Source: a virus
Reading direction: 5' to 3' (one strand)
IMG/VR virus record: IMGVR_UViG_3300024299_000002
DNA length: 8,454 nucleotides
Shown: in pieces, positions 1 through 8,454 of the stretch
Layout: the number at the start of each line of letters is the position of its first letter
Numbering within the stretch: position 1 is the first letter of the stretch
The notes under the pieces: generated by a model
The model's database searches: none
Seen by the model: only the letters and a program-made list of their open reading frames with translations
What the model was told of the DNA's origin: nothing
Translations under genes and position numbers: made by a program

Positions 1-65
1 CCGTAGATAAAACTCATAAGTTTAATTCTACTGCACCAATTCAACGCGGTGGACTTAGACTATAA
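1..65 (+). CDS. ORF8: 3' end of the small basic ORF8/J-like DNA-binding protein (5' part lies outside the window)
   Basis: Identical to 4157..4221, the tail of the complete 39-aa ORF. Codon phase begins at nt 3. TAA at 63..65 lies 3 nt before the Rep ATG. Confidence 0.6.
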   Translation, partial: VDKTHKFNSTAPIQRGGLRL

Positions 66-68
66 GTC

Positions 69-1025
69 ATGCCTTGCTATCACCCGCTAAAGGCTTACCG
101 CAGAACAGACTGTAATACTCTATCCTTTAATAAAAATGGACAATACACGAATATTGCAGCACCTCTCTCCCTACCTTGTGGCCAATGCACTGGCTGTAGA
201 CTCGAAAGGTCTAAACAATGGGCAATACGATGCGTACACGAAGCATCTCTCTATGAAAAAAATTGCTTCATCACACTTACCTACAACAACGAAAACCTAC
301 CTAAAGACTTTTCTTTAAATAAACGCGACTTTCAGCTCTTCATGAAACGCCTTAGAAAAGCACACTCTAATAAAACCATAAGATTCTACCATTGCGGAGA
401 ATATGGCGAACCTACAGAATTCAATAACTACGTCGCCAGACCTCACTATCACGCAATAATATTCAATCATGAATTTAAAGACACTACCTTATGGAAAACT
501 AAACGAGGAACAAAATTATATACCTCACCAGAACTAGAACGCCTATGGCCTCAAGGCTTCTCAACTATCGGTACCGTAACCTACGACTCCGCAGGATATG
601 TCGCTAGATACTTACTAAAAAAACTTAACTTATCCGATAAATCTTCACCCGGCGTTAAAGAACGCCATCAAAAACAATACACACACGTAGACCGTAAAAC
701 CGGGGAAGCATTCCCCCTCTTACCAGAATACACAACTATGTCTAGAAAACCCGGCATCGCCCGTGCATGGTTCGAAAAATGGGGAAAAGACGTCTTTCCA
801 AACGACTCTGTCGTAATGCAAGGAAAAGAACGCACCGTCCCCAAATTCTATGATACAATCTATCAAAACAACGAACCTGAAAAATTCGATATAATAAAAC
901 AAAAGAGGGTCAAAAATATGCAAAAACACGCTAAAGATAATACCCCCGATCGCCTCGCAAGCAAAGAGATCGTAAAAACTGCGCAGATAGGAAAACTGTA
1001 TCGTGAATACGAACAATCTAATTAA
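69..1025 (+). CDS. VP4: VP4 replication initiation protein (HUH rolling-circle endonuclease), 318 aa
   Basis: N-terminus MPCYHPLKAY is typical of gokushovirus VP4. It has FITLTY (motif 1), HYH at nt 444..452 (motif 2), and YVARY with two Tyr spaced as in phiX174 protein A (motif 3). There is also a CGQCTGC Cys cluster. Confidence 0.95.
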   Translation: MPCYHPLKAYRRTDCNTLSFNKNGQYTNIAAPLSLPCGQCTGCRLERSKQWAIRCVHEASLYEKNCFITLTYNNENLPKDFSLNKRDFQLFMKRLRKAHSNKTIRFYHCGEYGEPTEFNNYVARPHYHAIIFNHEFKDTTLWKTKRGTKLYTSPELERLWPQGFSTIGTVTYDSAGYVARYLLKKLNLSDKSSPGVKERHQKQYTHVDRKTGEAFPLLPEYTTMSRKPGIARAWFEKWGKDVFPNDSVVMQGKERTVPKFYDTIYQNNEPEKFDIIKQKRVKNMQKHAKDNTPDRLASKEIVKTAQIGKLYREYEQSN

Positions 1026-1053
1026 TTACTTAAAACTATCTCAAAGGAAAATT

Positions 1054-1311
1054 ATGAAACTTAATATCTATTCAATGTATGACCAAGCGGCACAAGCTTA
1101 TTTACCTCCCGTTTATTTAGAAAACGACAACGTCGCAAAACGGGCAATACAAAACGCTGTCAATACTCAAGATCATCAATTCAACCAAAATCCGGCAGAC
1201 TATACCCTATTTCACTTAGGTGAATGGGACGACTGCACGGCTACTATAACAATGCTAAAAACCCCCAATGTTCTTGCTAAATGCAATGAACTACTAACAA
1301 TTACGGAGTAA
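1054..1311 (+). CDS. VP5: VP5-like small non-structural protein (ssDNA synthesis/packaging role in gokushoviruses), 85 aa
   Basis: It sits between VP4 and VP1, as VP5 does in gokushoviruses. I chose the ATG at 1054 because AAAGGA lies 6-9 nt upstream. The track start at 1003 would overlap the Rep 3' end and has no RBS. Confidence 0.7.
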   Translation: MKLNIYSMYDQAAQAYLPPVYLENDNVAKRAIQNAVNTQDHQFNQNPADYTLFHLGEWDDCTATITMLKTPNVLAKCNELLTITE

Positions 1312-1315
1312 TACT

Positions 1316-2881
1316 ATGAAGTCAGTCATGTCACACAAGTTCAGCGAAATTCCAAAAGCTGATATCCAACGCTCAAAATTCGACCGTTCACACGGCTTAA
1401 AAACTACATTTGATGCGGGAAACTTAGTTCCAATGTTCACCGATGAAGTTCTACCTGGTGATACATTTAACTTACGCACGACTGCTTTCGCACGATTAGC
1501 AACACCCCTATTCCCTCTAATGGACAACATGTTCATGGAAACACACTATTTTTTCGTACCCAATAGATTACTTTGGGACAACTTTAAAAAATTCCACGGT
1601 CAACAAGACAACCCCGCAGACTCTATCGACTTCACAGTACCTACTATGACTTCAACTGGTACTGGCTATGCTAATGAATCACTACACGACTACTTCGGAA
1701 TACCAACTCAAGTATCTGGCCTAGAACACATTTCACTATATCACAGAGCATACAACCTAATTTATAATGAATGGTTTCGTGACGAAAACCTTCAAGACTC
1801 TGTAACAGTAGATAAAGATAATGGCCCAGATAATCCAAACGACTACACACTACTAAAACGTGGCAAAAGACACGACTATTTCACATCAGCACTACCATGG
1901 GCGCAAAAAGGCGATTCCGTTAATCTTCCTTTAGGATTAAAAGCGCCTGTCGCTTCTGATAATTCTTCTTATCTTACGGGTAGCACTTATACAGACGGAC
2001 ATGGAATTCTATTACCTAATATTGATACAGCTAATCATGCTTTAGCTGCGAATAGTTATTATACATATGCAAACACGGGTACAACTGCAGACGCAAACAT
2101 GCTATATGCAGACTTATCGTCAGCAACATCTGCAACAATCAACCAACTACGCCAAGCCTTTCAAATACAACGCTTATTAGAGCGCGATGCTCGCTCGGGC
2201 ACAAGATATACAGAAATCATTCGCTCACACTTTGGCGTAACCTCTCCAGACTCAAGACTTCAACGCAGTGAATACCTAGGCGGTGGATCATCAATGGTAG
2301 ATATCTCACCAATTCAGCAAACCTCTGAATCAACTGCCGCATCACCTCAAGGTACACTAACTGCACAAGGAACTGCCAATCTACACAATCATGGCTTCAC
2401 AAAATCCTTTACAGAACACGGAGTCATCATCGGATTAATCTCCGTTCGTGCAGACTTAACATATCAACAAGGACTAAATAGACGCTTCTCGCGTCAAACT
2501 CGCTACGATTACTACTACCCAGTACTAGGTAACATCGGCGAACAAACAATCCTTAATAAGGAAATATGGGCTGATGCATCAGCTAACGACGAACTCGTAT
2601 TCGGCTACCAAGAACGATATGCAGAATATCGCTACGAACCATCAAAAATCACTGGCAAGTTCAGATCAAATGATGCCGCGTCATTAGACGGCTGGCACTT
2701 ATCTCAAGACTTCGCCACTCTACCCGTACTCGGGGATACCTTTATTAAAGAAACTCCTCCAATAGCACGTGTCGTTGCTGTACCAAGCGAACCAGAATTC
2801 ATTCTCGACTGCTATCACCAATTGTCATGTGCTAGACCAATGCCAATTTATGCCGTTCCTGGCATGATGGATCACTTCTAA
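1316..2881 (+). CDS. VP1: VP1 major capsid protein, 521 aa
   Basis: The N-terminus SVMSHKFSEIPKADIQRSKFDRSHGLKTTFDAGNLVPMFTDEVLPGDTF closely resembles Chlamydia phage, SpV4 and phiMH2K VP1 as I recall them. GGAG lies 7 nt upstream of the ATG. Confidence 0.97.
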   Translation: MKSVMSHKFSEIPKADIQRSKFDRSHGLKTTFDAGNLVPMFTDEVLPGDTFNLRTTAFARLATPLFPLMDNMFMETHYFFVPNRLLWDNFKKFHGQQDNPADSIDFTVPTMTSTGTGYANESLHDYFGIPTQVSGLEHISLYHRAYNLIYNEWFRDENLQDSVTVDKDNGPDNPNDYTLLKRGKRHDYFTSALPWAQKGDSVNLPLGLKAPVASDNSSYLTGSTYTDGHGILLPNIDTANHALAANSYYTYANTGTTADANMLYADLSSATSATINQLRQAFQIQRLLERDARSGTRYTEIIRSHFGVTSPDSRLQRSEYLGGGSSMVDISPIQQTSESTAASPQGTLTAQGTANLHNHGFTKSFTEHGVIIGLISVRADLTYQQGLNRRFSRQTRYDYYYPVLGNIGEQTILNKEIWADASANDELVFGYQERYAEYRYEPSKITGKFRSNDAASLDGWHLSQDFATLPVLGDTFIKETPPIARVVAVPSEPEFILDCYHQLSCARPMPIYAVPGMMDHF

Positions 2882-3399
2882 TGAGTCTACTATCATCAAT
2901 AACCGGAGGTCAATGGCTAGGAGCCGCTGCAGGCTTCCTCGGCCAACGCTCCGCTAATAAAGCCAACTCCGCGCAAGCGGCACGCTCGATGGACTTCCAA
3001 CGAGAAATGGCACAAAAAGCACATCAATATGAGGTCGCAGACCTCAAAAAAGCTGGCTTAAATCCCTTACTCTCAGGAACTGGAGGTAAAGGCGCGTCCG
3101 CATCTGGCGGCGCACAAGCCAAAATAGAAAACGAAGTAAACTCAGCTATGACTACTAAACTTCTACAAGCACAAATCAATAAACTCAACGAGGAAACCGA
3201 GGTACTTAAAGGCGGTGTACCCGCCAAAACAATCGGAACTAAACCACTCGCAGACTTCAAAGAATTTGTCGTAGACAAACGCGATAGCGCTTTTTCAGCT
3301 TATAATCTAAAAAAAGAAAAAGAAAGAAATACAATACTTCACCCACCACGTAAAGACGGCTTAACCCGTCGCTCATATAAACCAGGCTACGGCCGCTAA
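2881..3399 (+). CDS. VP2: VP2 minor capsid / DNA pilot protein, 172 aa
   Basis: The ATG overlaps the VP1 stop (TAATG), which suggests translational coupling. The position after VP1 fits VP2. It has a Gly/Ala-rich core LLSGTGGKGASASGGAQAK and a following coiled segment. Confidence 0.8.
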   Translation: MSLLSSITGGQWLGAAAGFLGQRSANKANSAQAARSMDFQREMAQKAHQYEVADLKKAGLNPLLSGTGGKGASASGGAQAKIENEVNSAMTTKLLQAQINKLNEETEVLKGGVPAKTIGTKPLADFKEFVVDKRDSAFSAYNLKKEKERNTILHPPRKDGLTRRSYKPGYGR

Positions 3400-3411
3400 G
3401 GAGAATAAAAA

Positions 3412-3891
3412 ATGAAACGAACAAACGGAACAAAACGATATCAAATCAAATTCGACCAAGACGACGGCCGAACTCAACAACATCAAAAAGATGAATGTGA
3501 TATCAATCTCATCATCAAACGCCATACTCCAGAGCAAATTGCTCTAATGGCTACACAAAACGAAGGCCAATATGGCGACGCAACTTCCGTCGACTATCAT
3601 GCCGCACAAAACATTATCGCAAACGCGAATACAATGTTTAATGATCTTCCATCGGAAATCAGAAATCAATTCGACAATGATCCTGCTACCTTCTTAGACT
3701 TCACATCTAATGAAGAAAACTACGCAGAAATGCGCAAAATGGGCATCATGTCACCAGAAGTAAATACTACTTCTTCTGAATCAATTGTGAGCGAAGCGAA
3801 CCCGCCGAAGGCGAATAGCGCAAGCGGAAATGCTCCGCAGGAACCATCGGTAGATCGCGTCGAAGACGCGCCTAAAACAGTTACCACTTGA
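3412..3891 (+). CDS. VP3: VP3 internal scaffolding protein, 159 aa
   Basis: AAGGAG RBS lies upstream and the gene follows VP2. The N-terminal 113 aa are conserved between units. The stop TGA (3889..3891) lies inside the loop of the downstream stem-loop. Confidence 0.85.
   Translation: MKRTNGTKRYQIKFDQDDGRTQQHQKDECDINLIIKRHTPEQIALMATQNEGQYGDATSVDYHAAQNIIANANTMFNDLPSEIRNQFDNDPATFLDFTSNEENYAEMRKMGIMSPEVNTTSSESIVSEANPPKANSASGNAPQEPSVDRVEDAPKTVTT
3856..3870 (+). other. GC-rich hairpin CGCGTC-GAA-GACGCG, inside the VP3 coding tail in unit A
   Basis: Perfect 6-bp inverted repeat read directly from the sequence. It is positionally equivalent to the hairpin at 8126..8142 in unit B, but the stem sequence differs. 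Confidence 0.6.
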
Positions 3892-3900
3892 TGTAACTGT
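3877..3900 (+). promoter_or_regulatory. Candidate (+)-strand origin: 8-bp stem ACAGTTAC/GTAACTGT with loop CACTTGAT
   Basis: Perfect 8-bp inverted repeat. The loop contains ACTTGAT, identical to the core of the phiX174 gene-A cleavage site (CAACTTG^ATATT). It is identical in unit B. Confidence 0.5.
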
Positions 3901-3931
3901 ATGGAGTGACACCGTATAGGTGGAACTCCAT
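3901..3931 (+). other. Compound hairpin ATGGAGT-GA-CACC-GTATA-GGTG-GA-ACTCCAT
   Basis: A 7-bp outer stem and a 4-bp inner stem are separated by symmetric GA/GA internal mismatches. It directly abuts the ori-like hairpin, is followed by an A-rich tract, and is identical in unit B. Confidence 0.55.
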
Positions 3932-3962
3932 TAAAAAAAACTAAAAAAGGAACAAAAAAATA

Positions 3963-4076
3963 ATGCAATACTTACTAATAAAAATACTACTAGGAATGCT
4001 AAAAACAACCCTAATTCCTTTACTAACTAAATTTCTTGAAAAGAAATTAAAACAACTTGACATCGACAAGCTATAA
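3963..4076 (+). CDS. Hypothetical 37-aa hydrophobic/amphipathic cationic peptide MQYLLIKILLGMLKTTLIPLLTKFLEKKLKQLDIDKL
   Basis: The ORF is not in the supplied track (too short). It is intact in both units, with AAGGA about 11 nt upstream. Three nt differences in 114 nt give 2 synonymous changes and 1 Leu->Ile. The A-rich spacer just upstream differs at 6 or more of 34 positions. Confidence 0.35.
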   Translation: MQYLLIKILLGMLKTTLIPLLTKFLEKKLKQLDIDKL

Positions 4077-4077
4077 T
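4049..4077 (+). promoter_or_regulatory. Possible promoter for ORF8-VP4: perfect -10 TATAAT (4072..4077) with weak -35 AAAACA at 17-bp spacing
   Basis: TATAAT is conserved in unit B (8343..8348). The upstream region is A/T-rich. The host is unknown, so the sigma-70 model may not apply. Confidence 0.2.
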
Positions 4078-4101
4078 CAAATAAACCAACGGAGAAATAC
4101 C

Positions 4102-4221
4102 ATGAAACGTAGAACAAAACTATCTAAATCAAAATCTCGTAAATACTTCAAAAAAACCGTAGATAAAACTCATAAGTTTAATTCTACTGCACCAATTCAA
4201 CGCGGTGGACTTAGACTATAA
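4102..4221 (+). CDS. ORF8: ORF8/J-like small basic DNA-binding (packaging) protein, 39 aa: MKRRTKLSKSKSRKYFKKTVDKTHKFNSTAPIQRGGLRL
   Basis: 14 of 39 residues are Lys or Arg. GGAG RBS lies 8-11 nt upstream. It sits immediately upstream of VP4, as ORF8 does in Chlamydia-phage-type genomes. It is not in the supplied track (too short). Confidence 0.7.
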   Translation: MKRRTKLSKSKSRKYFKKTVDKTHKFNSTAPIQRGGLRL

Positions 4222-4224
4222 GTC

Positions 4225-5238
4225 ATGCCTTGCTATCACCCGCTAAAGGCTTACCGCAGAACAGACTGTAATACTCTATCCTTCAACAAAAATGGACAAT
4301 ACACGAATATTGCAGCACCTCTCTCCTTACCTTGTGGCCAATGCACTGGCTGTAGACTCGAAAGGTCTAAACAATGGGCAATACGATGCGTACACGAAGC
4401 ATCTCTCTATGAAAATAATTGCTTCATCACACTTACCTACAACAACGAAAACTTACCTAAAGACTTTTCTCTAAATAAACGCGACTTTCAACTCTTTATG
4501 AAACGCTTAAGGAAAAAATACGTCCCTACAAATCCATACGATAAAAAAACACAAGAAGATCAATATAATCAATTTCATAAAAAACATGAAATACGCTTCT
4601 ATCATTGCGGCGAATATGGCGAACCAACAGAATTTAACAATTACGTCGCCAGACCTCATTATCACGCAATAATATTCAATCACAAATTCAAAGATGAAAC
4701 TCTATGGAAAACTAAAAGAGGGACAAAACTATTCACATCAGCAGAACTCGAAGAGCTTTGGCCAAAAGGCTTCTCAACAATCGGAACTGTAACGTACGAC
4801 TCCGCAGGATATGTCGCACGCTACCTATTAAAAAAACTTAACTTATCCGATAAATCCTCACCTGGCGTAAAAGAACGCCATCAAAAACAATACACACATA
4901 TAGACCATCAAACTGGGGAAACATTCCCCCTCTTACCAGAATACACAACTATGTCTAGAAAACCCGGCATTGCCCGTGCATGGTTCGAAAAATGGGGAAA
5001 CGACGTCTTTCCAAACGACTCTGTCGTAATGCAAGGAAAAGAACGTACCGTCCCTAAATTCTATGATACAATCTATCAAAACAACGAACCTGAAAAATTC
5101 GATATAATAAAACAAAAGAGGGTCAAAAATATGCAAAAACACGCTAAAGACAATACCCCCGATCGGCTCGCAAGCAAAGAGATCGTAAAAACTGCGCAGA
5201 TAGGAAAACTGTATCGTGAATACGAACAATCTAATTAA
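4225..5238 (+). CDS. VP4: VP4 replication initiation protein (HUH Rep), 337 aa, with a 19-aa net insertion relative to unit A
   Basis: Same motifs as unit A (FITLTY, HYH, YVARY). The extra segment KYVPTNPYDKKTQEDQYNQFHKKHE lies between motif 1 and HUH. Confidence 0.95.
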   Translation: MPCYHPLKAYRRTDCNTLSFNKNGQYTNIAAPLSLPCGQCTGCRLERSKQWAIRCVHEASLYENNCFITLTYNNENLPKDFSLNKRDFQLFMKRLRKKYVPTNPYDKKTQEDQYNQFHKKHEIRFYHCGEYGEPTEFNNYVARPHYHAIIFNHKFKDETLWKTKRGTKLFTSAELEELWPKGFSTIGTVTYDSAGYVARYLLKKLNLSDKSSPGVKERHQKQYTHIDHQTGETFPLLPEYTTMSRKPGIARAWFEKWGNDVFPNDSVVMQGKERTVPKFYDTIYQNNEPEKFDIIKQKRVKNMQKHAKDNTPDRLASKEIVKTAQIGKLYREYEQSN

Positions 5239-5269
5239 TTACTTAAAACTATCTCAAAGGAAAAACAAT

Positions 5270-5527
5270 ATGAAACTTAATATCTATTCAATGTATGACC
5301 AAGCGGCACAAGCCTACTTACCACCCGTATACTTAGAAAACGACAACGTCGCAAAACGGGCAATACAAAACGCTGTCAATACTCAAGATCATCAATTCAA
5401 CCAAAACCCGGCAGACTACACCCTATTTCACCTTGGTGAATGGGACGACTGCACGGCTACTATAACAATGCTTAAAACACCTAACGTTCTTGCGAAATGC
5501 AATGAACTACTAACAATTACGGAGTAA
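5270..5527 (+). CDS. VP5: VP5-like protein, 85 aa
   Basis: The amino-acid sequence is identical to unit A from MKLNIYSMYDQ onward. The 3-nt indel lies upstream of this ATG, which supports the internal start. Confidence 0.7.
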   Translation: MKLNIYSMYDQAAQAYLPPVYLENDNVAKRAIQNAVNTQDHQFNQNPADYTLFHLGEWDDCTATITMLKTPNVLAKCNELLTITE

Positions 5528-5532
5528 TTACT

Positions 5533-7137
5533 ATGAAGTCAGTCATGTCACACAAGTTCAGCGAAATTCCAAAAGCTGATATCCAACGCTCAAAATTCGA
5601 CCGTTCACACGGTTTAAAAACTACATTTGACGCGGGAAACCTAGTACCAATGTTCACCGACGAAGTATTACCTGGTGATACATTTAACTTACGCACGACT
5701 GCCTTCGCACGACTAGCAACACCCTTATTCCCTTTAATGGACAATATGTTCATGCAAACTCACTATTTTTTCGTACCCAATAGACTACTTTGGGACAACT
5801 TTAAAAAATTTCACGGTCAACAAGACAACCCAGACGACTCTATTGACTTCACAGTTCCTATCATGACGTCAACTGCTTCAACTGGTTATGCTAATGAATC
5901 ATTACATGATTACTTAGGAATACCAACACAAGTCGCGGACTTAGATCACATCTCACTATATCACAGAGCTTACAACTTAATTTACAATGAATGGTTTCGT
6001 GACGAAAACCTACAAGACTCTGTTGTCGTAGACAAAGATAATGGCCCCGACTCACCAACAGACTATGTACTATTAAAACGTGGCAAAAGACACGACTACT
6101 TTACATCAGCACTACCATGGGCACAAAAAGGCGATTCAGTTGGCTTACCTTTAGGTGTTACTGCACCCGTTTACGGTGACGGAAAAAATTTAGGCTTAAC
6201 TGATGGAGTAACTAATTTTGGTCTAACCTCTGTAGGCACTAAAGAATTTCGCGGTATTACCGGAAATTATGGCGGCAATATTGGTACAACTCCAAATACT
6301 GGTACTTGGAATCCAGCAGATACCTCTTTCGGTGTTGTTGAAACTGGAACCTCTGGATTAGTCGCAGACTTAACAACAGCAACTGCCTCAACAATCAATC
6401 AACTACGCCAAGCTTTTCAAATACAACGCTTACTAGAGCGTGACGCTCGAAGCGGAACAAGATACACAGAAATCATTCGCTCACACTTTGGCGTAACTTC
6501 ACCAGACTCAAGACTCCAACGCTCAGAATATCTAGGCGGTGGATCATCAATGGTAGACATCTCACCAATTCAGCAAACTTCTGAATCAACTGCCGCATCA
6601 CCTCAAGGTACACTAACTGCACAAGGAACAGCCAATTTACATAATCATGGCTTTACTAAATCCTTTACAGAACACGGAGTTATTATCGGACTAATCTCCG
6701 TTCGTGCAGACTTAACTTACCAACAAGGACTAAACAGACGCTTCTCGCGTCAAACTCGCTACGATTATTATTACCCTGTACTAGGGAACATCGGCGAACA
6801 AACAATCCTAAATAAGGAAATATGGGCTGACGCATCAGCTAACGACGAACTCGTATTCGGCTACCAAGAACGATATGCAGAATATCGCTACGAACCATCA
6901 AAAATCACTGGCAAGTTCAGATCCAATGATGCCGCGTCATTAGACGGCTGGCACTTATCTCAAGACTTCGCCACACTACCCGTACTCGGGGATACCTTTA
7001 TCAAAGAAACACCACCAATAGCACGTGTCGTCGCTGTACCAAGCGAACCAGAATTCATTCTCGACTGCTATCACCAATTGTCATGTGCTAGACCAATGCC
7101 AATCTATGCCGTACCTGGCATGATGGATCACTTCTAA
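5533..7137 (+). CDS. VP1: VP1 major capsid protein, 534 aa
   Basis: Collinear with unit A VP1. The C-terminal ~245 aa are identical in amino-acid sequence. The central loop cannot be aligned with unit A. Confidence 0.97.
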   Translation: MKSVMSHKFSEIPKADIQRSKFDRSHGLKTTFDAGNLVPMFTDEVLPGDTFNLRTTAFARLATPLFPLMDNMFMQTHYFFVPNRLLWDNFKKFHGQQDNPDDSIDFTVPIMTSTASTGYANESLHDYLGIPTQVADLDHISLYHRAYNLIYNEWFRDENLQDSVVVDKDNGPDSPTDYVLLKRGKRHDYFTSALPWAQKGDSVGLPLGVTAPVYGDGKNLGLTDGVTNFGLTSVGTKEFRGITGNYGGNIGTTPNTGTWNPADTSFGVVETGTSGLVADLTTATASTINQLRQAFQIQRLLERDARSGTRYTEIIRSHFGVTSPDSRLQRSEYLGGGSSMVDISPIQQTSESTAASPQGTLTAQGTANLHNHGFTKSFTEHGVIIGLISVRADLTYQQGLNRRFSRQTRYDYYYPVLGNIGEQTILNKEIWADASANDELVFGYQERYAEYRYEPSKITGKFRSNDAASLDGWHLSQDFATLPVLGDTFIKETPPIARVVAVPSEPEFILDCYHQLSCARPMPIYAVPGMMDHF

Positions 7138-7652
7138 TGGGTTGGCTGGAAGGATTAGGCGCGGGAGCTTTAGGCTTCCTCGGCCAAAGATCCGCTAATA
7201 AAGCCAACTCCGCGCAAGCGGCACGCTCGATGGAATTCCAACGAGAAATGGCTAAAAATGCACATCAATACGAGGTCGCAGACCTCAAAAAAGCTGGCTT
7301 AAATCCCTTACTCTCCGGAACTGGAGGTAAAGGAGCGTCCGCATCTGGCGGCGCACAAGCCAAAATCGAAAACACAGCTAACTCAGCTATGACTTCCAAA
7401 CTACTAAATGCACAAATCAATAAACTAAACGCTGAAACTTCAGCCGTTCAAGGCGGTATACCCGCCAAAACGTTCGGCACAGATTTTATGGACTGGCTAG
7501 GCGAAGCCTATCAAGGATCAGCCACTAAAAACTTGTTAGACAAGTGGAACGATTACACCGCTACACAAAATAATTCCGCTAAACAAGGCTATAATAAAAA
7601 CAAAAAACTACGAATATACATAAATAAATCAAAAGAAGACCTCGCTAAATAA
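7137..7652 (+). CDS. VP2: VP2 minor capsid / DNA pilot protein, 171 aa
   Basis: TAATG overlap with the VP1 stop. The core (GFLGQRSANK...PAKT) is conserved with unit A. The N-terminal 12 aa and C-terminal 56 aa are unrelated to unit A. Confidence 0.8.
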   Translation: MGWLEGLGAGALGFLGQRSANKANSAQAARSMEFQREMAKNAHQYEVADLKKAGLNPLLSGTGGKGASASGGAQAKIENTANSAMTSKLLNAQINKLNAETSAVQGGIPAKTFGTDFMDWLGEAYQGSATKNLLDKWNDYTATQNNSAKQGYNKNKKLRIYINKSKEDLAK

Positions 7653-7663
7653 AGGAAATTATC

Positions 7664-8122
7664 ATGAAAAGAACAAACGGCACAAAACGCTTCCAAATCA
7701 AATTCGACCAAAACGACGGCCGAACCCAACAACATCAAAAAGATGAATGTGATATTAATCTCATCATCAAACGCCACACTCCAGAGCAAATCGCTCTAAT
7801 GGCTACACAAAACGAAGGCCAATATGGCGACGCAACTTCCGTCGACTATCATGCCGCACAAAACATTATTGCAAACGCAAATACAATGTTTAACGAATTA
7901 CCTTCGGATATCCGAAACCAATTCAATAATGATCCCGCAATCTTCTTAGATTTCACATCTAATGAAGCTAACTATCCCGAAATGATAGAAATGGGCATCA
8001 TGACTCAACCAGACGTTCAAGATAGAACACCTATCACTTCTGAACCAACTGTGAGCGTAAGCGAACCCGTCAGCAAAGCTGACGATAGCGCTAGCGTAAA
8101 TGCCTCGCAGAGTACGTCGTAA
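7664..8122 (+). CDS. VP3: VP3 internal scaffolding protein, 152 aa
   Basis: The first 113 aa are collinear with unit A and the C-terminal tail has diverged. It stops at 8120..8122, 3 nt before the GC hairpin. Confidence 0.85.
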   Translation: MKRTNGTKRFQIKFDQNDGRTQQHQKDECDINLIIKRHTPEQIALMATQNEGQYGDATSVDYHAAQNIIANANTMFNELPSDIRNQFNNDPAIFLDFTSNEANYPEMIEMGIMTQPDVQDRTPITSEPTVSVSEPVSKADDSASVNASQSTS

Positions 8123-8125
8123 GAC

Positions 8126-8145
8126 CGCCCCGAATAGGGGCGTTT
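8126..8145 (+). terminator. Hairpin CGCCCC-GAATA-GGGGCG followed by TTT (intrinsic-terminator-like)
   Basis: Perfect 6-bp GC stem (8126..8131 / 8137..8142) with TTT at 8143..8145, immediately after the VP3 stop. The T-run is short. Confidence 0.4.
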
Positions 8146-8147
8146 AA

Positions 8148-8171
8148 ACAGTTACCACTTGATGTAACTGT
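8148..8171 (+). promoter_or_regulatory. Candidate (+)-strand origin stem-loop (unit B copy), loop CACTTGAT
   Basis: Identical to 3877..3900. It is fully non-coding in this unit. Confidence 0.5.
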
Positions 8172-8202
8172 ATGGAGTGACACCGTATAGGTGGAACTCC
8201 AT
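8172..8202 (+). other. Compound hairpin (unit B copy)
   Basis: Identical to 3901..3931. Confidence 0.55.
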
Positions 8203-8233
8203 AAAAAACCACTAAAAAAAGGAATAAAAAACA

Positions 8234-8347
8234 ATGCAATACTTACTTATAAAAATACTACTAGGAATGCTAAAAACAACCCTAATTCCTTTAATAACTA
8301 AATTTCTTGAAAAGAAATTAAAACAACTTGACATCGACAAGTTATAA
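8234..8347 (+). CDS. Hypothetical 37-aa hydrophobic/amphipathic peptide (unit B copy, L21I)
   Basis: Same frame, length and stop position as 3963..4076. Confidence 0.35.
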   Translation: MQYLLIKILLGMLKTTLIPLITKFLEKKLKQLDIDKL

Positions 8348-8348
8348 T
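8320..8348 (+). promoter_or_regulatory. Possible promoter (unit B copy), -10 TATAAT at 8343..8348
   Basis: Positional equivalent of 4049..4077. Confidence 0.2.
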
Positions 8349-8372
8349 CAAATAAACTAACGGAGAAATACC

Positions 8373-8454
8373 ATGAAACGTAGAACAAAACTATCTAAAT
8401 CAAAATCTCGTAAATACTTCAAAAAAACCGTAGATAAAACTCATAAGTTTAATT
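8373..8454 (+). CDS. ORF8: 5' part of the ORF8/J-like basic protein (runs off the window end)
   Basis: Identical over the 82 nt available to 4102..4183. Same GGAG RBS. Confidence 0.65.
   Translation, partial: MKRRTKLSKSKSRKYFKKTVDKTHKFN
8428..8454 (+). repeat. Start of a third unit; exact 27-nt copy of nt 1..27 and 4157..4183
   Basis: The string ccgtagataaaactcataagtttaatt occurs at 1, 4157 and 8428. Confidence 0.95.

Follow-up and report, generated by a model that had tools for sequence, protein, structure and literature searches.

An apparent head-to-tail dimer of two marine gokushovirus genomes that is probably an assembly pseudo-dimer

The 8,454-nt viral sequence analysed here (the window) carries two complete gokushovirus genomes, A and B, joined head to tail. 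It would best be explained, with a probability of roughly 0.88 and judging from sequence, as an assembly walk through two co-occurring ~4.2-kb marine gokushovirus strains, not as a molecule. An earlier note on this DNA had listed such a threading of two strains through their shared ori/ORF8/Rep segment (X below) as one of three readings; it is supported by closed monomers, by the position of the join within X, by the equivalence of dimer and monomer k-mers, and by A-X-A and B-X-B linkage in other contigs. The headline of that note, a heterodimer or longer array, was overstated, and its third unit rests on a 27-mer that both units share.

The window is composed of unit A (1-4156), unit B (4157-8427), and a 27-nt terminal overlap, and direct repeats at a spacing of 4156-4271 span its whole length. 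All of the long ORFs are on the + strand, and Rep/VP4, ORF5, VP1, VP2, and VP3 are intact in both units. The units and their genes are as follows.

1..4156, + strand: unit A, complete gokushovirus genome (strain A); 100% match to independently closed 4156-nt circles
69..1025, + strand: Rep/VP4 of A, 318 aa; PF23343 (REP_ORF2-G2P), E = 2e-21
1054..1311, + strand: ORF5/VP5 of A, 85 aa from ATG; PF20577 (Phage_ORF5), and gene calls on monomer contigs
1316..2881, + strand: VP1 major capsid protein of A, 521 aa; PF02305 (Phage_F), E = 7e-188, full-length
~1937-2097, + strand: variable surface loop of A VP1, from the A/B alignment and substitution counts
2881..3399, + strand: VP2-position protein of A, 172 aa, named by position only; its C-terminal half is a replaced cassette
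3412..3891, + strand: VP3 internal scaffold of A, 159 aa; PF09675 (Chlamy_scaf), E = 2e-31
3901..3931, + strand: intergenic hairpin with 7-bp and 4-bp stems, conserved, just 3' of the VP3 stop
3963..4076, + strand: hydrophobic small ORF, 37 aa, called on every monomer contig
4102..4221, + strand: ORF8/J-like ORF, 39 aa, highly basic, wholly within X
4157..8427, + strand: unit B, complete gokushovirus genome (strain B); one mismatch to the closed 4271-nt circle L011
4225..5238, + strand: Rep/VP4 of B, 337 aa, longer than that of A by a 19-aa insertion
5270..5527, + strand: ORF5/VP5 of B
5533..7137, + strand: VP1 of B, 534 aa
7137..7652, + strand: VP2-position protein of B, 171 aa
7664..8122, + strand: VP3 of B, 152 aa

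With an F/VP1 capsid, Rep, VP3, ORF5, and a one-strand genome of ~4-5 kb, each unit can be assigned from its sequence to the Microviridae, gokushovirus type. The VP2-position protein has no Pfam match; it shows weak tblastn similarity to the protein at the equivalent position, after VP1, in relatives. VP1 matches 3763 phage records by tblastn, and its best GenBank matches (64-66% identity) are uncultured marine gokushoviruses, namely Ciona robusta-associated Microviridae sp. and Eel River basin pequenoviruses, whose genomes of 4.0-4.4 kb are similar in size to A and B. None of the GenBank phage records is near-identical to the window at the DNA level. Sample 3300024339, which holds strain A, is also the source of a UViG of an element that one paper reports from marine samples only. 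By these comparisons, A and B are judged to be new strains of a known kind, marine gokushovirus. The ORF5/VP5 reading frame of A also opens at a GTG at 1003.

The earlier note had described two genomes of 4156 and 4271 nt, diverged by silent substitutions and replaced cassettes yet with every ORF intact, and the repeats, alignment, and substitution counts agree with that description. A global alignment of A and B gives 86.9% identity across aligned columns. The pattern is mosaic: windows of 96-100% identity are interleaved with replaced cassettes of 35-68% identity, and near-identical blocks also alternate with blocks diverged by 10-15%. Replaced cassettes lie in Rep (~A 301-443), in the VP1 loop (~A 1937-2097), at the VP2 N-terminus, in the VP2 C-terminal half, and at the VP3 C-terminus. 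Beyond the cassettes, the changes are mostly synonymous. Thus, ORF5 has 13 synonymous and 0 non-synonymous changes, Rep has 48 and 17, and VP1 has 99 and 50, with the non-synonymous ones of VP1 clustered in the loop.

The join between the units lies within segment X, which spans the ribosome-binding region and the whole 39-aa basic ORF8/J-like gene and runs 59 nt into rep. Alleles are of A type up to 4087 and of B type from 4284, and this A-X-B join at 4088-4283 is the only heterologous join physically present in the window. X occurs as one complete and two truncated copies.

1..127, + strand: X copy 1, truncated (last 127 nt); the unique diverging 127-mer of the A+B graph
4088..4283, + strand: segment X, complete, 196 nt; no other exact match between circular A and B reaches 99 nt
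8359..8454, + strand: X copy 3, truncated (first 96 nt); its final 27 nt form the terminal overlap and are also found at 1-27 and 4157-4183

The exact terminal overlap, at 8428-8454, is a 27-mer present three times in the window (starting at 1, 4157, and 8428). The earlier note took it as the beginning of a third unit; the end repeat itself is confirmed, and the third unit is not, since the 27-mer is part of a stretch that does not differ between A and B and so shows neither that what begins at 8428 is A nor that B is joined to A. For the same reason, B-to-A closure is never observed, and a circular 8427-nt dimer with its B-X-A join would have to rest on this shared 27-mer.

Analyses of k-mers indicate how a contig of this form could arise from separate genomes. 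Breaking the 8427-nt dimer circle into k-mers gives the same set as pooling those of the two monomer circles, at all values of k tested (21 to 197). The de Bruijn graph of an A+B mixture has 31, 10, and 7 diverging/converging nodes at k = 27, 55, and 77, respectively; at k = 99, 127, and 141, a single node of each kind is left. Because X is the sole exact match of at least 99 nt, the figure-eight found at k = 99-141 extends up to k = 195. The first 127 nt of the window coincide exactly with the unique diverging 127-mer, which recurs at 4157, and the window contains one repeated 127-mer and no repeated 128-mer. The final k of the assembler was thus very probably 127, as far as these repeats can tell. 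Both units are perfectly phased and switch only at X, as expected from a large-k assembler.

Under the assembly reading, the sample would contain one marine gokushovirus as two or more co-circulating strains, including A (a circle of 4156 nt) and B (a circle of 4271 nt). The flanks to the left and right of X could not be paired by reads or k-mers shorter than 198 nt, and the circles would therefore collapse, at k 99-195, into a figure-eight made of a loop A', a loop B', and a single shared edge, X. The assembler would have begun at the branch vertex, walked A' and then X, taken the unused branch B', and re-entered X, yielding a contig in which A and B seem to be dimerised head to tail, with a short repeat at the ends. 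The separate monomers, the join within X, the k-mer equivalence, and the start on a k = 127 branch vertex are shown; the identity of the assembler, and its reason for taking B' over closing A, are what we infer. As in a pseudo-dimer, closed monomers of each unit were found, and the join falls in the sole inter-strain repeat of k size or longer.

The monomers come from independent assemblies. Six of them contain A, closed into a circle of 4156 nt and matching at 100%: four are MEGAHIT (k141) contigs with a 141-nt overlap (L002, L003, L004, and L006), and two are Logan contigs with a 30-nt overlap (L009 and L010). B is present as circle L011 (4271 nt, 141-nt overlap), which has a single mismatch, at window position 5019; L099/L135 match L011 at 100% over 3594 nt. 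Another MEGAHIT k141 contig of strain B, L012, ends exactly with the first 141 nt of X, the converging 141-mer, indicating that an actual assembly did branch at X. Terminal repeats of 127 nt are found on the JGI relatives L014 and L095, and L099 terminates on a repeated 127-mer. Apart from the window, 13 distinct contigs contain X with flanks; ten are A-X-A and three are B-X-B, so that among such contigs A-X-B linkage is seen in the window only. In two of the ten A-X-A contigs, the left flank includes a few k-mers of B type.

Some features fit the figure-eight less well. The final base of the window is base 96 of X, and a further 31 nt would be required to complete the converging 127-mer; with a canonical 127-nt terminal repeat, the contig would measure 8554 nt, exactly 100 nt more than the window does. 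None of the collections searched contained the contig from which the window derives. An overlap of 27 nt is not a usual final k, and the figure-eight reading leaves the end of the window unexplained. In addition, a pair-aware assembler should normally resolve a 196-nt repeat. Its failure to do so at X would require that pairs were left unused, that loops were avoided by design, or that some A-X-B read pairs were real.

Precedents for such contigs exist. Assemblers can concatenate genome copies, with terminal-repeat lengths that follow k (CheckV, PMC8116208). Like those concatemers, the window is ~2x the expected length, has a short direct terminal repeat, comes from short-read assembly of a small circular genome, and has boundary lengths tied to k (Nayfach et al. 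2021, PMC8116208). It differs from them in that its copies are different strains (87% identity) rather than one genome repeated, and are joined at a single shared exact repeat; under CheckV-type tests, its k-mer-frequency score would be near 1, and the length test alone would flag it. Where a conserved region exceeds k in length, de Bruijn assemblers also cannot connect its two flanks (PMC11443906); linkage becomes undecidable, and the outcome is fragmentation, as in L012 at node X, or a wrong join. Here, with two circular genomes that have a single such node in common, the product would be a neat pseudo-dimer rather than a mosaic single genome.

A physical origin of the dimer, also among the readings of the earlier note, is improbable, and its best form would be an 8427-nt circular heterodimeric replicative form, made when one homologous crossover fuses the double-stranded replicative forms of A and B inside a co-infected cell and existing as an intracellular recombination intermediate that exceeds the packageable size. 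The lineages evidently do recombine, as judged from the mosaic A/B blocks and from two natural-looking recombinants among the other contigs (L001 and L094). Reciprocal exchange between circles goes via a dimer, and one crossover would place both joins at a single homologous site, matching the window. The classical literature of the 1960s-70s describes, as recombination intermediates, replicative forms of phiX174/S13 that are of multiple length or figure-8 in shape; these have the topology that a co-integrate needs, a circular dimer formed via one crossover. Those forms were demonstrated physically by electron microscopy and sedimentation, whereas the apparent dimer of the window is a contig sequence. 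Against a co-integrate, the window holds nothing to tell it from two monomers (k-mer identity extends up to k = 197), other samples give A and B as monomers, and recombination intermediates would be a tiny minority of molecules. Moreover, of the exact-match sequence on which homologous recombination could act, X makes up 14-26%, and about 1 in 5 real crossovers would be expected within it, whereas an artefact with k of at least 99 must join at X. The start of the window on a k = 127 graph vertex likewise suggests graph traversal.

Slightly less probable still is that template switching at X, during phi29 whole-genome amplification or library PCR, generated real A-X-B fragments that were then assembled. 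Rolling-circle or multiple-displacement amplification is a common step in preparing ssDNA viromes, and identical sequence, of which X is the longest stretch, promotes switching. Fragments of this type would account for the acceptance of an A-X-B path by a pair-aware assembler. Nevertheless, they are unnecessary given the equivalence of dimer and monomer k-mers, and their biological meaning would be the same as that of the assembly walk: no natural dimer.

The least credible possibility is another reading of the earlier note, an A-then-B tandem prophage integrated by host XerC/XerD at dif, with the contig broken at the repeated X. Enterogokushovirus prophages do integrate at dif by XerC/XerD, as shown experimentally (Kirchberger and Ochman 2020, PMC7062461), and hetero-tandem gokushovirus prophages are real: in Intestinirhabdus alba BIT-B35 (L111), two different units lie head-to-tail beside dif. 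These prophages belong to the same subfamily as the window units, with the same gene set and no integrase. However, in L111, which served as the control, host DNA flanks the array and a dif site marks every junction, with units 70-83% identical, while the window units are joined within a 196-nt identical coding segment. The earlier note had proposed looking for host genes and dif-like junctions; neither was found in the window, which is entirely viral and has no site with 3 or fewer mismatches to dif or the dif core, nor any with 6 or fewer mismatches over the 22 arm positions, though the exact dif of the host may differ. Most gokushoviruses lack dif (PMC7062461). Searches of E. coli genomes and of genomes from 185,579 species found no copies; a 30-mer from X likewise has zero matches in the latter, and in metagenomes it occurs on monomer-sized contigs only. 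The nearest relatives in genome collections (VP1 identity of 61% or less) are also monomer-sized contigs.

A real dimer would mean that a recombination intermediate or a lysogenic array had been seen directly in an uncultured ssDNA phage, which is rare; a co-integrate in particular would be a captured intermediate, abundant enough to sequence, of the inter-strain recombination behind the mosaic genomes of the population. If the window is instead an assembly walk, it serves as a caution that a terminal direct repeat together with double the expected length can represent two strains connected via one shared exact repeat. Duplicate-k-mer filters would miss such contigs, because the copies differ by 13%, and the contigs would inflate the size range of 'complete' microviruses and confuse species-level clustering. 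The biology gained is modest: two new marine gokushovirus strains, each backed by independent closed assemblies and differing by cassette swaps in the Rep, VP1-loop, VP2, and VP3 regions over a background of synonymous divergence.

One MEGAHIT contig, L001, is a 1.6-unit mosaic of three strains without an internal repeat of at least 141 nt, and simple figure-eight logic does not fully account for it. The hairpin at 3901..3931 (-9.2 kcal/mol, z = -3.7) lies within a 57-nt exact A/B match. The strain switches of L001 map at, or just past, this hairpin.

The window consists of two collinear gokushovirus units, A (1-4156) and B (4157-8427), with each 300-nt block of A matched in B 4156-4271 nt further downstream. 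In a global alignment the units are identical at 86.9% of aligned columns, and the identity profile is strongly mosaic. The 100-nt windows at 96-100% identity include 1-300, 744-1043, 2598-2697, and 3968-4156, and between such near-identical windows sit cassettes at 35-68% identity (Rep, the VP1 loop, VP2, and the VP3 C-terminus). Outside the cassettes, substitutions are mostly synonymous; synonymous and non-synonymous changes number 13 and 0 in ORF5, 99 and 50 in VP1, and 48 and 17 in Rep, respectively. The gokushovirus gene set is intact in A and in B.

Genes present in both units
Rep/VP4: matches PF23343
ORF5: matches PF20577
VP1: matches PF02305 (E = 7e-188)
VP3: matches PF09675
VP2-position protein: without a Pfam match
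Two small ORFs: 37 and 39 aa

Alignment, Pfam, and substitution counts thus bear out the earlier note's description of two units with replaced cassettes, silent changes, and intact ORFs. B Rep carries a 19-aa insertion relative to A (window 4513-4572, about aa 98-116) flanked by a short stretch of replaced residues, the rest of the protein being highly conserved; the second Rep of L001, a mosaic contig, also has this insertion. A block comprising the intergenic, ORF8-like, and rep 5' regions (window 3968-4456 versus 8239-8454 plus 4157-4456) is 98-100% identical between A and B, unlike most coding sequence, where synonymous sites diverge by about 10%. The pattern points to either recent exchange between lineages or strong constraint at the nucleotide level.

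The 'heterodimer' is best explained, with a probability of roughly 0.88, as the product of a short-read assembly in which the figure-eight graph of two co-occurring strains was traversed. Circular A and circular B share 31 maximal exact matches of at least 27 nt, and only one of these reaches at least 99 nt. This segment, X, is 196 nt long and runs from A 4088 round to A 127 (window 4088-4283); truncated copies lie at 1-127 and 8359-8454. Within X lie the ribosome-binding region, the 39-aa basic ORF8/J-like gene in its entirety (4102-4221), and the 5'-most 59 nt of rep. In an allele table of 15 junction sequences, informative sites of the internal join are all A-type up to 4087 and all B-type from 4284, and monomer contigs have alleles of one type on either side of X.

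At all k tested from 21 to 197, the 8427-nt dimer circle has the same k-mers as the two monomer circles together; the first difference appears at k = 198. Diverging nodes in the A+B graph number 31 at k = 27, 10 at k = 55, and 7 at k = 77, and at k = 99, 127, and 141 a single diverging and a single converging node remain, so that the graph is a figure-eight. Given mixed monomers, a large-k assembler would be expected to yield a contig phased perfectly in both units and switching only at X; traversal of the figure-eight by a short-read assembler would then give the 'heterodimer' pattern. Window 1-127 coincides exactly with the unique diverging 127-mer, and the window holds one repeated 127-mer and no repeated 128-mer. 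Terminal repeats of 127 nt occur on two related JGI contigs (L014 and L095), and a contig that walks 1.13 units, from a B-variant into B (one contig under two handles, L099 and L135), halts on a repeated 127-mer. A strain-B contig (L012) from MEGAHIT k141 assembly ERZ27250239 ends exactly with the first 141 nt of X, the point at which a k = 141 graph has to break given a second strain sharing X; X is therefore a branch node in real assemblies. Multi-copy contigs made by assemblers, and terminal repeats of length k, have been documented by CheckV (PMC8116208), and de Bruijn assemblers cannot connect the two sides of a conserved region that exceeds k in length (PMC11443906).

Linkage across X was read in 13 distinct contigs with a complete X besides the window. 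Ten of them have A-type sequence on both sides (L001 to L010, with some B-type k-mers in the left flank of L001 and L005), and three have B-type sequence on both sides (L011, L099/L135, and L136); A to the left with B to the right is seen in the window alone. Contigs encoding exactly B's Rep have a B-type left flank wherever it is readable, and B's VP3 precedes B's Rep wherever the contig reaches that far.

Both units also occur as monomer circles. Contigs were gathered from public assemblies by exact VP1 protein look-up, followed by local BLAST and terminal-overlap analysis. Four MEGAHIT k141 contigs from ENA (L002, L003, L004, and L006) are 4297 nt long (4156 + 141), their ends overlapping exactly by 141 nt, and circularised A is 100% identical to them; a fifth (L005) is alike except for one mismatch to A. 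Two Logan contigs (L009 and L010) of 4186 nt, or 4156 + 30, are also 100% identical to A. L011, at 4412 nt (4271 + 141), matches circularised B except for a single base at window 5019. A and B thus self-close in other samples under two different assemblers, and since each closes alone elsewhere, they need not occur as a dimer. Were the dimer real, the depths of A and B would have to be 1:1 in every sample; the available assemblies suggest otherwise, because A or B forms its own circle in several of them. Together, the k-mer equivalence, the position of the join in X, and the monomer circles support the earlier suggestion that two strains were threaded in assembly.

The first 27 nt of the window equal its last 27 nt, a match that the earlier note read as the start of a third unit at 8428. 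The match stands; the third unit does not follow from it. The 27-mer lies inside X and is found at 1, 4157, and 8428, so the overlap does not reveal the sequence after B. Both the B-to-A join and the 'third unit' come from this terminal overlap and not from direct observation. An overlap of 27 nt corresponds to no usual final k. The MEGAHIT meta-large k list has 27 and 127 as its ends. The idea that an assembler run at k = 27 produced the overlap was rejected, since at that k the A+B graph has 31 shared nodes, which make perfect phasing implausible. The last base of the window is the 96th base of X, and the complete converging 127-mer ends 31 nt further on. Had the terminal repeat been a canonical 127 nt, the length would be 8554 nt, the window plus exactly 100 nt, and this 100-nt shortfall suggests, speculatively, that the window is truncated at its end. 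Polymorphism does not account for the stop at the 96th base, as the only polymorphic positions of X among sampled strains are 4101, 4197, 4272, and 4281.

A physical co-integrate of A and B is highly unlikely. The contig is no evidence for one, given that dimer and monomers have the same k-mers up to k = 197. In addition, X makes up just 14-26% of the exact-match target, so a homologous crossover would be expected to fall there in only that fraction of cases, whereas assembly with k of at least 99 must place the join there. Transient heterodimers in co-infected cells are plausible in principle; none was observed in the present data. Fusion of the two genomes as a chimera of in-vitro amplification is given a very slim chance.

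The A/B population is clearly a recombining swarm. L001 (ENA ERZ27250242, MEGAHIT k141) is a 6827-nt, 1.6-unit linear mosaic of three strains, passing from B-like VP2/VP3 with a novel VP2 C-terminus to A and then to an intergenic region like that of contig L097 with a B-like Rep. It switches at or just after the post-VP3 hairpin region (window-equivalent 3875-3939) and not at X, and its longest internal repeat is 98 nt, with none of at least 141 nt. Natural recombinants, graph pruning, or the two combined may account for the mosaic. L001 was rejected as independent support for an A-B array, because its switch points lie away from X and a third, L097-like strain is involved. Another contig, L094, is a fine mosaic.

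The hairpin itself (window 3901-3931; equivalent in B near 8172-8202) is a conserved DNA element, ATGGAGT..ACTCCAT plus an inner 4-bp stem, with a folding energy of -9.2 kcal/mol (z = -3.7). It lies directly 3' of the VP3 stop, is followed by an A-run, and falls within 57 nt that match exactly in A and B. The hairpin may serve as a complementary-strand origin or another cis element, and L001 apparently has a recombination breakpoint there. A scan of the intergenic region for intrinsic terminators and promoters found nothing.

A tandem prophage integrated in a host chromosome, another reading in the earlier note, has a very low probability: host genes and dif-like junctions were sought in the window and neither was found. 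The dif search was run at three stringencies; the window has no match to E. coli dif or the dif core at up to 3 mismatches, nor to a dif-like site at up to 6 mismatches over 22 arm positions. A 30-mer from X has zero matches across 185,579 species, each represented by one genome, and is confined to monomer-sized contigs in JGI metagenomes and IMG/VR, and near-identical DNA was not found in any complete E. coli genome. A capsid-based scan placed the nearest genome-collection relatives (at most 61% identity) on monomer-sized contigs binned into MAGs, several of which are Gammaproteobacteria, and also yielded genuinely integrated gokushoviruses from lineages further away. Among them, locus L111, from the isolate genome of Intestinirhabdus alba BIT-B35 (NZ_WMJZ01000007.1, record 104820-126430), holds a true head-to-tail pair within L111 1-16000: two different prophages of about 4331-4342 nt each, 70-83% identical.

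Features of the L111 tandem (L111 coordinates)
3913-3940: host dif
3993-4850 and 8333-9181: Rep
5668-7263 and 10001-11611: VP1
near 8245-8272: internal dif-like site, possibly with a 7-nt spacer
12568-12595: distal dif-like site

The L111 tandem is bordered by host DNA at either side and has dif and dif-like sites, whereas the window has neither; taking L111 as the model of a tandem prophage, the window is unlike it. The dif motif is missing from most gokushoviruses (Kirchberger and Ochman, PMC7062461), and the text of that paper on enterogokushoviruses does not mention tandem arrays. In two further MAG loci, L121 900-8700 (Kiritimatiellia) and L124 4700-13700 (Rickettsiales), two gokushovirus gene sets are inverted, head-to-head. 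This arrangement is unexpected from directional XerCD/dif integration; these loci could be misassemblies or reflect a different integration route.

Among 80 IMG/VR VP1 relatives, four contigs are longer than one unit: L022 (8214 nt), L040 (7761 nt), L058 (5545 nt), and L075 (5526 nt). Their second copies are 78-88% identical to the first over aligned blocks, so overshoot into a different genome is recurrent in microvirus-rich assemblies. Internally, their exact repeats reach no more than 34, 121, 91, and 95 nt, respectively, and a simple k = 127 figure-eight therefore fails for all four. No monomer reference for any of them turned up among the collected loci.

Near-identical DNA in GenBank phages was limited to two trivial matches of 38-50 nt. 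Screens of IMG/VR, JGI metagenome contigs, GTDB genomes, and an exact-protein index (with VP1-A, VP1-B, Rep-B, and VP3-B) did not turn up the contig from which the window derives. In GenBank, VP1 is closest to that of Ciona robusta-associated Microviridae and Eel River basin pequenoviruses (64-66% identity). The sample containing strain A, 3300024339, also yielded the UViG of an element that one paper reports only from marine samples. Both A and B are new strains within a known type of marine gokushovirus.
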